The position numbers are program-made. From a virus (lineage: Duplodnaviria; Heunggongvirae; Uroviricota; Caudoviricetes), in the IMG/VR virus record IMGVR_UViG_2537561620_000013, positions 1-10,741 of that record: a DNA stretch of 10,741 nucleotides, one strand, 5' to 3'. Positions 7,216 to 10,741 of the stretch are shown here, piece by piece (positions within the stretch are counted from its first letter, which is position 1; each line of letters begins with the position of its first letter).

Positions 7216-10200
7216 TAAAAATAAAAATAAAAAATAAAAATAAAAAATTAGAGATTGAGTTTTCTCGTGGTTTTCCATATTGATTTTTTTATAAGTAGAG
7301 AATAACCAATAAATGCAATAGCACTTGGCCACAGATAGTTGAATGATCCTGTTATCCAAATCGCGGCATTGAAAAAAACATCGCTTGGCATCATAACAAT
7401 CAGTAATAATGACATGATTGAAGTGTTTATTTTATAGTAAAGGTTGTTTTTTCTCTGAAAGATAGAGCAAATGCCAATAATTAATGATGAAAACATTGCT
7501 GCATTAATTAAAGACCAAGCATAAAAATGATTAATAAGATTTATTAATGCATATTCAATCTATGTTCGTGATGACCATGTGAAATATCTATCTATGAGCC
7601 ACTTGATGTGATCCGGTTCTGATATTGATTTCTCGGAAAACCAAATGTCATCTGATACTAGTGTATATTGATTTAAATGAAGAATAGTTAAACCAATAAA
7701 AAAAGCAAAAGAAAGCATATGTAATTTGATTTAATCATTTCTTATCCTTAATAATATATTTAGGTCTATTTTTTACTTCAATATATATTCTGCCTATATA
7801 TTCTCCGAGAACACCAATCCCGATCAGTTGCACGCCACCCAAGAAAAGTATTGATACAAGCAGGGAGGGATACCCGCGTACTGGGTTACCAAAGACAAGG
7901 GTGTCTATAATCATCCATGCACCATATAAAAACGAAATGCTTGCAACAAACAAGCCTATATAAGTCCATACGCGAAGAGGAAAGGTTGAAAAACTTGTGA
8001 TACCTTCCAGTGCCAGATTCCATAATTTCCAGCCATTAAATTTTGAGATGCCAGCAACACGCTCTGCGCGTACATATTCAACGACATCTGTCTGACCACC
8101 CACCCAGCTCAGTATGCCTTTCATGAAAAGATTGCGCTCAGGCAACAGTTTAATGTTCTCCACAACCTCACGAGACATGAGTCGAAAATCTCCGACATTT
8201 TCCTCGATCTTTGGAGTGCTTATTTTGTTGTGTAACTTATAGAACCACTCAGCTGTCTTACGTTTCAGTCGTCCATCAGTTGAGCGGTCTGAACGTTTAG
8301 CAAGCACCATGTCAGCACCAGCCTGCCACTTTTCAATAAGATGAGGGATAACCTCAATAGGGTCTTGCAGGTCGACATCAATAGGAATTACAGCATCGCC
8401 GCTTGCATGGTCTAACCCTGCAAATAAGGCTGGTTCTTTACCAAAGTTGCGTGTAAATGACAGCGGAACAACTAGCGGGTCTGAAACAGCCAGCGCGTTA
8501 ATAATTGACTCTGTGGCATCTTTACTTCCGTCATTTATGAATACAATTTCTACTTCATATGGCTTCAACTCTTGGAATTCACGTACCGTCTTATAGAAAA
8601 CAGGTATCGCTTCTTCTTCATTGAAGACAGGAACGACAAGAGATATTTTCATTTCGCATCCCTAAAAACAATGAACTTTGAATAGACGAAACCGCACACC
8701 AGACTGATGGCGGAGAAGGTGATAAGAGTAACTATTGGAGGAAGTGAGCATTTATCAGCAGCCCAACCAACAATCGCACTCAATATTCCCATGAATCCCA
8801 CGTATAACATGTAGCGTATCGCTGTAGTCGATGCTTTGAATGTGAATCTTGCATTCGCGAAGAAGCTAAAGCTCACAGCTACTACGAAACCTGTGAAGTT
8901 TGCCAGGGCCTGACTGGTATGCGCGGCATAGATACATACACCAAAAACTACCCAGTGTATAAGTGTATTCAGCACACCTATAGATGTGTACTTTACAAAT
9001 AACTTTAACATTTATTTAATCAATGAGTTCTGAAAGTCATGAAGTCTATCATCCAAGTCTCAATTGATCGATATTTGCTGTGTCTGATGAGACAAAACTG
9101 AGACACATAAGGCCTCGCAATGGCTTGCAAGGCTTTACATGTTTTGATTTAGTGGGACGTGTGAGCGCAGTGTTGATGGGGTAATGCTTTGAATTAGAAG
9201 CGGATTCTTATAATTCGTAATGCGAAGGTCGTAGGTTCGACTCCTATTATCGGCACCATTTAAATCAATAAGTTACACATCATTAGTACCTTCCTTATTT
9301 CTTGACTGGGACAAATTTGGGACCGATGGGTTCAGAATCGAGTCTATTTGCCGTGCGTGTTCGGTAAGGTGATTAGGTGCGAGGTGAGCATATCGACGAA
9401 CCATTTCGATAGACTCCCAGCCTCCCATTTCCTGTAACACTGATAACGGGACTCCGGCTTGAACCAGCCAACTTGCCCAGGTGTGTCTCAAGTCGTGAAA
9501 TCTGAAATCATCAATACCAGCCCGTCTCAGCGCCGCTTTCCAGGCTGTGTTTGCGTCATACCGCATCTTCCTTACTGTTGGCGCTTTCGTTCCGTCTGGT
9601 TTGGTACAGCTTTCCTTGTACACAAATACCCAACGGTGATGATTTCCGATTTGTTTTTTCAAAACGCGACATGCAGTATCATTCAGCGCAACGCCGATTG
9701 CGCGGTTTGATTTACTCTCTTTGAGGTGTACTGGCAATAGCGGACACTACCATTTGTTCTTTTTAAGCAGCCATCTGATGATATTTTTCCCTGAAGGCTG
9801 CCGGGGAGATATTCCCCAGACGAGAGTGACGACGCTGACGATTGTAGAAAATCTCAATGTATTCCCGTATTACTGAGATGGCTTCATCCCGGTTATTAAA
9901 ACGATAGTGGCTCAGGCTCTCATTTTTCAGCGTTCCCCAGAAGCTTTCCATCGGAGCGTTGTCGTAACAGTTACCTTTACGCGACATTGATGTTTTCAGA
10001 CCAAACTGCTCCTGTATGACCCGGTAATCGTATGCGCAGTACTGTGAACCTCGATCAGAGTGGTGGATTAGCCCGGCAGGTGGGCGCTGGCTCCTGAGCG
10101 CCATAAACAGGGCTTTACCTGTCAGCTCTTTTGTCATGCGCTCTCCCATGGCGTAGCCGACAATTTCGCACGTATAAACATCTTTGATGCCAGCGAGGTA

Positions 10201-10741
10201 CAACCATCCCTCCTGTGTGGCAACATACGTCAGGTCCGCCACCCAGACCTGATTTGGTGCTGTAGGAGCGAACGTCTGGTTCAGCAGATTTGGCGCAACT
10301 GGCAGATTGTGGTTCGGGTTCGTAGTCGCTCTGAACTTGCGTTTCTGCTTACAGCGTAGCCTTAGCTCCTTACGAAGACGTGCCAGTCGGTCACGACCAA
10401 CGATGATGCCATTCTCTGCCAGCTCCGTCTGGAGCCGCCGGGTTCCATATGTTTCGCGAGTGCGGATATGTGCCACCTTAATCTCCAGTTTTAGCCGCTC
10501 ATCACTTTGTTTTCTGTCTGAGGGTTCATGCTGTACCCAGTTGTAATAACCGCTCCTGGATACACCAAATACCTGACACATCGCTTCAATGGGAAATTGT
10601 TGTCGCCATTGTTCGATTAACGCGTATTTTTCAGCGACTCCTGTGCAAAATACGCTGTTGCTTTTTTTAATATATCACGCTCAAGGCGAGCTTCATTTAA
10701 CGCCTTACGCAGTTGCAGAATTTCAGTATTCCAGTTCAGCC

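Follow-up and report, generated by a model that had tools for sequence, protein, structure and literature searches.

The window analysed here, a stretch of 10,741 nucleotides, is filled by a prophage up to position 9212 and ends on the right in a piece of an integrase gene that abuts an insertion sequence. This arrangement raises the question of whose integrase was interrupted, how the interruption came about and whether it prevents the prophage from leaving the chromosome. A first-pass annotation had described an integrase cut down to its catalytic C-terminus by a functional-looking IS3-family element and had proposed that this loss, together with a broken spike gene and gtrC, locks the element in place. 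In the following sections the junction, its relatives in other genomes and the neighbouring prophage are considered in turn.

The integrase fragment

The 3' part of a tyrosine integrase gene, hereafter int', occupies positions 9273 to 9721 on the minus strand and was recognised both by the Pfam profile Phage_integrase (PF00589) and by DNA identity to the int genes of SfIV, SfI, SfV and SfII. The gtrA-attP-int regions of these four phages match the window from the start of gtrA at 96.9-97.6% DNA identity, and the matches end at 9721. The SfIV gene measures 1164 nt and encodes 387 amino acids; by protein alignment to integrases of this length, the window fragment corresponds to residues 240-387. 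It consists of the stop codon (9273-9275), 148 codons and 2 nt of codon 239, in agreement with the estimate of about 150 remaining C-terminal codons made at first.

The open reading frame annotated at this place is slightly longer, extending on the minus strand from 9737 to 9273 and encoding 154 amino acids from a TTG start. Its residues 1-5 (MPVHL) have no counterpart in the integrase when the proteins are aligned. The TTG at 9737-9735 and the five opening codons lie within the terminal repeat of the insertion sequence, so that the apparent start is indeed supplied by the IS end, as had been suspected. An exact protein lookup of this ORF returned only a 1.5-kb contig, likewise ending in IS.

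The name "catalytic C-terminus", on the other hand, did not hold. The 154-aa ORF matches Phage_integrase with E=1.2e-30, and only at profile positions 57-171 of 172. In the full-length protein the catalytic domain spans residues 184-355, and the break therefore falls inside this domain. The motifs HDLRH and RYAHL, the latter containing the tyrosine, are kept in the fragment, while the box I arginine (R215, in ATGLRRS, which aligns with box I of the HP1 integrase) is absent from it and sits in the other half, residues 1-238. Thus the complete catalytic set (box I Arg, box II His-x-x-Arg and nucleophile Tyr) is not present in int', and the arm-binding and core-binding N-terminal domains of a full 387-aa integrase are likewise missing from the 148 codons. 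Judging from these motifs, neither half of the split integrase should be active in DNA recombination. A scan of positions 8950-10000 detected no sigma-70-like promoter site for the int' ORF, and expression of the fragment is consequently unsupported. The junction between int' and the insertion sequence is confirmed, far beyond what chance would produce.

The IS600 copy

The adjoining element belongs, as first proposed, to the IS3 family, and was identified as IS600. From 9722 to 10741 the minus strand contains the first 1020 of its 1264 nt, counted from the right end, at 99.4-99.6% identity to 1264-bp copies, which carry the RefSeq label "IS3-like element IS600 family transposase"; the left end lies beyond the window. 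The right end begins at 9722, reads TGAGGTGTAC... / TGAGGTGTACTGGC... and opens with 5'-TG. In a complete copy on a Shigella flexneri chromosome (L030, see below) the two ends pair as a 27-nt imperfect inverted repeat, and by this pairing the right terminal repeat (TGAGGTGTACTGGCAATAGCGGACACT) was placed at 9722-9748, where it includes the TTG described above. The transposase genes of IS600 are oriented as int.

The gene orfB (9763-10581, minus strand) is intact and encodes 272 amino acids corresponding to the catalytic part of a DDE transposase, with Pfam matches to rve (PF00665, E=3.2e-26), rve_3, rve_2 and HTH_21 and a single amino-acid difference (F193/S193) from the L030 copy. The overlap of orfA and orfB and the slippery tract that had been noticed there were also found again: the tract is an A7 run (T7 on the plus strand) at 10662-10668, from which the -1 frame is open into OrfB, and it would allow a -1 frameshift leading to an OrfAB transposase.

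The statement that the IS looks functional fared less well. Only the 3' part of orfA, about the last 40 codons, is in the window (10617-10741, minus strand, with the normal stop at 10619-10617), as delimited by alignment to seven other copies and by translation. This gene carries a +1 frameshift, an additional base at 10727 (on the plus strand a T), which creates a premature TGA at 10725-10723; the translation reads AELEY-stop at about codon 65 of 100 in place of the canonical AELESEIL. In the L030 copy the canonical OrfA has 100 amino acids and matches HTH_Tnp_1 with E=1.5e-20, and an intact 0-frame OrfA with this helix-turn-helix is absent from the window copy. As translation would end upstream of the slippery site, this copy could not yield the OrfAB transposase. 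In the comparison with the seven other copies three differences are found in the window only, namely the extra T at 10727, an A for T at 10677 and one T fewer in a T-run near 9759. The variant at 10727 is absent from IMG/VR and also from complete E. coli genomes, whose roughly 7,450 IS600 places reach an identity of 98.9% at best. It could reflect either a true mutation or an error of sequencing, the second being possible because the window has private homopolymer single-base indels elsewhere; in either case the functionality of this IS600 copy is not established.

A simple insertion in codon 239 in related sequences

The words "cut down" suggest that part of the integrase gene was lost, and this can be evaluated where both sides of the IS are visible. 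An exact 44-nt pattern of the junction occurs in five contigs of IMG/VR and in the two complete chromosomes CP182556 (Shigella flexneri SFBU1023, here L030) and CP178302 (labelled E. coli ECMA0423, here L029). The far side of the IS can be seen in four sequences (L024, L028, L029 and L030), and in 4/4 of them IS600 is complete, with 1264 bp. All four read ...CTCTT|IS600|CTTCCGGG..., so that CTT flanks both ends of the element, whereas the uninterrupted int of SfIV reads ...CTCTTCCGGG... at the insertion point. By this comparison the CTT at 9719-9721 would be the one copy of a 3-bp target-site duplication that is visible in the window. Three nucleotides past IS600 the four sequences resume with the N-terminal part of an SfIV-like int at 99.4-99.7% identity, and in L029 and L030 this sequence continues into the xis region. 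The N-terminal 238 codons are thus found in these relatives on the other side of IS600: the element entered codon 239 by ordinary transposition with a 3-bp duplication, and the gene was split, not deleted.

For the genome from which the window derives, whose far side of the IS is outside the view, the relatives indicate that the N-terminal half of int most likely lies beyond IS600 as well. If so, about 245 nt of IS600 would follow the window, ending in ...GGCTACCTCA, and then CTT and CCGGGTTTATCC..., that is int codons 238 to 1 (residues 1-238, with the box I arginine), and xis.

It is quite unlikely, in our opinion, that in this particular genome IS600 instead removed the integrase N-terminus and adjacent DNA by an IS-mediated deletion. 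Such an event would be compatible with the fact that the far side lies outside the window and outside its nearest haplotype mates (L003, L006 and L027), all of which stop in or at IS600 as the window does, and the locus has clearly been remodelled in L028, where IS1 is nested in IS600 and a further element of the IS3 family cuts off the N-terminal part of int after 787 nt. However, the CTT duplication and the int N-terminus are present in 4/4 sequences that show the far side, L028 included, and the window bears no sign of a deletion.

The attachment site and the neighbours of the scar

Between the start of gtrA (9011) and int' lies an attachment site. The left arm of this site (the P arm, 9012-9212) derives from the phage and aligns collinearly, at 98%, with E. 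coli prophages of like type (L014-L023) on their attR side, the match running to 9263-9276. It is followed on the plus strand by a 46-nt core (9213-9258), the 3' end of the tRNA-Thr gene thrW, which matches ATTCGTAATGCGAAGGTCGTAGGTTCGACTCCTATTATCGGCACCA exactly; the same 46 bases have been described as the att core of SfI, SfII, SfV and SfX (PMC3636060). A whole tRNA at 9190-9260 was also considered and rejected: ARAGORN finds none in the window, where thrW is represented by no more than its 46-nt 3' part. At the corresponding place in L030 and L024 the same program reports a complete thrW.

The order gtrA, P arm, core, P' arm and int' is the order of a phage attP. At face value the interrupted gene could then be the integrase of the prophage in the window itself, in an attP-type map or in a circularly permuted or excised form, and its loss would lock the element. 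In favour of this view, the maps of the phages SfIV, SfI, SfV and SfII show gtrA, the att core and int side by side, exactly as the window does; there are, moreover, two short contigs (L012 and L013) with an intact int, the core and gtrA that are 100% identical to the window over 9012-9721, P arm included, and decay of the window's prophage is evident.

In chromosomes, however, int and gtrA lie at opposite ends of prophages of this type. The intact relative in E. coli AR_0061 has the order proA-thrW-int-xis...head...Mu-like tail-acyltransferase-gtrC-gtrB-gtrA-attR-yagP', with int 41 kb from gtrA, and in published work the integrase and the O-antigen modification genes are likewise found at opposite prophage ends (PMC3306764). 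Furthermore, the left neighbour of the int'::IS600 scar is of four kinds: a complete thrW with proA (L024, L029 and L030); an SfX-type gtrX-gtrB-gtrA cluster, with gtrX 99.8% identical to that of SfX (L025 and L026); a gene for an acyltransferase of 390 aa (L028); and the P arm and prophage type of the window (L003, L006 and L027). The identical junction behind thrW-proA, behind the gtrX cluster of SfX and behind an unrelated acyltransferase is independent of what stands on its left, and a phage genome is not expected to share an IS junction with a chromosomal relic. The homology of the window also switches at the core, being about 98% with the attR side of the E. coli prophages to the left and 99.4-99.5% with the Shigella relic to the right.

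Because the scar is shared by different left neighbours, and because int and gtrA belong at opposite ends, the fragment is most likely that of an older relic downstream, and int'::IS600 is most likely a chromosomal relic downstream of the attR (core at 9213-9258) of the prophage in the window. That the integrase was the prophage's own is in comparison unlikely. If the relic's integrase is not the prophage's own, its loss does not lock the prophage, and this part of the earlier description is not sustained. We infer for the source genome a tandem arrangement, on the basis of context, since a P-O-P' junction would also be expected of a free or circularised phage. Tandem integration at thrW has been reported for SfI and SfX, and in the map of the proA-yaiC region int and IS600 are drawn among the conserved host genes (PMC3306764, Figure 2).

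Concerning the distribution of the scar, an origin of the junction in E. coli was considered and rejected, the int'::IS600 junction being found in 0/5,426 complete E. coli RefSeq genomes. Uninterrupted target sites were encountered in at least 120 IMG/VR contigs, in a scan seeking an intact int together with the relic on the SfX-type contigs L025 and L026. The contigs of E. coli or Shigella to which lookups of gtrA and gtrB led differ from the window in context.

One insertion or several

Comparison of int' between copies bears on whether the scar arose once. Over the 710 nt that it shares with L012 and L013, which carry an intact 387-aa int beside gtrA, the window shows no difference, whereas from the other IS-bearing copies its int' departs at 2-3 positions (9340, 9663 and 9696). 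At two of these, 9663A and 9696G are found in the window and in the intact alleles (L012, L013 and 33 IMG/VR contigs), while the other IS-bearing copies have T and A. The identity to intact alleles implies that a single ancestral insertion needs a later gene conversion or recombination.

The same variants could be explained by recurrence, IS600 having entered the same integrase codon independently more than once at a target hot spot, in which case the agreement of 9663A and 9696G with the intact alleles would be natural. We regard this as very unlikely, as position, orientation and flanking triplet are alike in all copies, and three IS600 sites have unrelated flanks (...CTCTT, ...CCATT and ...ACAAGT). 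In addition, int' of the window shares with the relic haplotypes seven other variants that distinguish them from SfIV, so that a short conversion tract accounts for the data more simply than recurrence does. One inherited insertion followed by a short conversion tract is therefore favoured. Variants of IS600 itself were tried as a test of one versus several events and discarded, an unrelated copy in L028 being as close to that of the window as the relic copies are.

A more adventurous idea is that IS600 targets this codon again and again, or that recombination carries the scar onto the integrases of incoming phages, so that serotype-converting phages arriving at thrW would repeatedly be disarmed by IS600 at the same triplet. 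A weaker form of the idea is that the 154-aa integrase tail is expressed, through the TTG that the IS supplies and read-through from orfB, and interferes with the integrases of arriving phages. Both versions appear far-fetched to us.

State of the prophage in the window

The prophage to the left of the scar is defective for reasons other than int, in its baseplate genes and in gtrC. With respect to four E. coli relatives, the baseplate genes contain an 11-nt duplication (437-447) and single-base indels at 9 and 217. In the relatives gtrC encodes 413 aa; in the window three single bases are deleted from it and an AAAAAT repeat has expanded by 47 nt, so that the gene is broken. Among these lesions the deletion at 7697 and, in part, the repeat expansion are common to another contig (L007), and a lookup of the private gtrC fragment of 136 aa gave no record. 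Of the two broken genes initially listed, gtrC was correctly described, and a broken spike gene was not supported: the tail fibre ORF has 216 aa, the same length as in intact relatives.

Several private single-base indels are present in the window, and some details of its sequence may be sequencing errors.

Proposed history of the locus

The order of events that best accounts for the locus would be the following. IS600 would have transposed into codon 239 of the int gene of an SfII/SfV-like prophage integrated at thrW, duplicating CTT, and by splitting int inside the catalytic domain it would have left the interrupted element immobile. This element most likely differs from the prophage that fills positions 1-9212. 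Later, another phage, which had a Mu-like tail, an acyltransferase and gtrCBA, would have integrated site-specifically into thrW, upstream of the relic. The resulting attR would read P arm, core, P' arm of the relic and int', and so would look like an attP; the integrase of the later phage itself would adjoin thrW, at a distance of some 40 kb leftwards from the window. In our reading, the window accordingly ends on the right in what is most likely a chromosomal scar typical of Shigella flexneri-type genomes, and to the explanation as a whole (scar, relic and later phage) we assign a probability of roughly 0.8.

For annotation, this means that where gtrA, att and int' meet in a Shigella-type chromosome, the attR of one prophage with an older int::IS600 relic next to it should be assumed, and not a crippled integrase belonging to that prophage. 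The distinction alters conclusions on whether a serotype-converting prophage can still excise, and it also explains why draft assemblies break at int::IS600. It should be noted that this kind of scar is already known at the well-studied thrW locus and implies no new mechanism; for Shigella flexneri there is good documentation both of prophage integrases inactivated by insertion sequences and of thrW occupied in tandem.

Comparison with known systems

The closest counterparts of int' are the thrW integrases of SfII, SfIV, SfV, SfI and SfX, phages with a P22-type att core. In the part that is retained, identity is 96.9-97.6% for DNA and 96-99% for protein, the 46-nt att core is equally placed, 14 nt downstream of the stop codon, and the position of int relative to gtrA matches the phage maps. 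Unlike these integrases, the window has residues 240-387 only, IS600 splitting the catalytic domain, and its fragment most likely comes from a relic rather than from a live phage.

The element itself resembles IS600, an abundant insertion sequence of Shigella and E. coli, in its overall identity, its TG end, the rve domain of OrfB and the A7 run at the overlap, and a 3-bp target duplication is present at the related loci. It differs from other IS600 copies in being cut by the end of the window and in an OrfA truncated after about 65 of 100 residues.

As a locus, the best comparison is the proA-yaiC region of S. flexneri, where int, IS600 and IS629 are shown as conserved host genes (PMC3306764). 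That paper gives no coordinate for the insertion, and the identity of our scar with its relic is inferred from genome sequences; the junction is present also in the S. flexneri SFBU1023 complete genome (CP182556). The left neighbour in the window is a different prophage, which has a Mu-like tail, encodes an acyltransferase of 349 aa and carries a gtrC of E. coli type, now reduced to a pseudogene. The order of thrW core, int and IS600 is nevertheless alike in the two cases, and in S. flexneri incoming phages integrate at thrW beside these genes, as we propose for the prophage in the window.

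Intact integrase copies and variants of the remnant

Two short contigs from draft genomes (L012, positions 1097-2884, and L013, positions 835-2622) have an intact integrase gene of 387 amino acids together with gtrA and the att core, arranged as in attP. Window 9012-9721, which runs from the P arm through the att core to the end of the integrase remnant at the IS600 junction, is 100% identical to both of them. The arrangement in these two contigs corresponds either to tandem prophages in which the downstream integrase is still intact or to excised circles.

Concerning single bases, A at 9663 and G at 9696 occur both in the window's remnant and in intact alleles from 33 IMG/VR contigs; T and A, respectively, occur in the other copies of the remnant that carry IS600. 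At 9340, too, the window differs from other copies of this kind. It is possible that the variants at 9663 and 9696 (and also 9340) represent a short gene-conversion tract adjoining the IS junction.

Other states of the locus

The same scar of a remnant integrase joined to IS600 was found, further decayed, in L028 (positions 1-11967), a related sequence in which the IS600 holds a nested IS1 and the N-terminal part of the integrase ends after 787 nt, cut by another IS3-family element. P22-like genes for coat, tail accessory and needle proteins come next, and another IS600 copy is close by. In L004, a Shigella-type chromosome of 4.5 Mb, the locus is reduced much further: proA is followed, after about 1.7 kb, by an acyltransferase gene (349 aa), a gene of the gtrII type (486 aa), gtrB, gtrA and then host genes; both the integrase and the tail genes are absent from this region (10001-16247).

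Damaged and intact genes in the window

With four E. coli relatives as reference, the baseplate genes at 1-810 are damaged: there is one additional G at position 9, an A-run is one A short at 217, and a tandem duplication of 11 nt (437-447) frameshifts the baseplate V gene, whose product in the relatives has 182 aa.

The gtrC gene (6453-7735) is a pseudogene. Its product in intact E. coli relatives has 413 aa (PF19528, DUF6056), and in the window the gene is disrupted at 6850, 7283 and 7697, each time by a -1 indel, and also at 7189-7235, where an (AAAAAT)n microsatellite has expanded by 47 nt. Since the deletion at 7697 and, in part, the repeat expansion are shared with the related contig L007, at least those lesions are real.

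The first-pass annotation had also considered the spike gene broken, but this was not evident: in the region 2857-3913, the gp53-like tail fibre ORF of 216 aa has the same length as in the intact prophage of E. coli AR_0061, and the assembly-gene ORF (3416-3913) is open. An intact Acyl_transf_3 gene of 349 aa (4686-5735) separates gtrC from the tail fibre genes. SfII and the E. coli relatives have their acyltransferase gene in the same place. In AR_0061 the counterpart is interrupted by IS903B.
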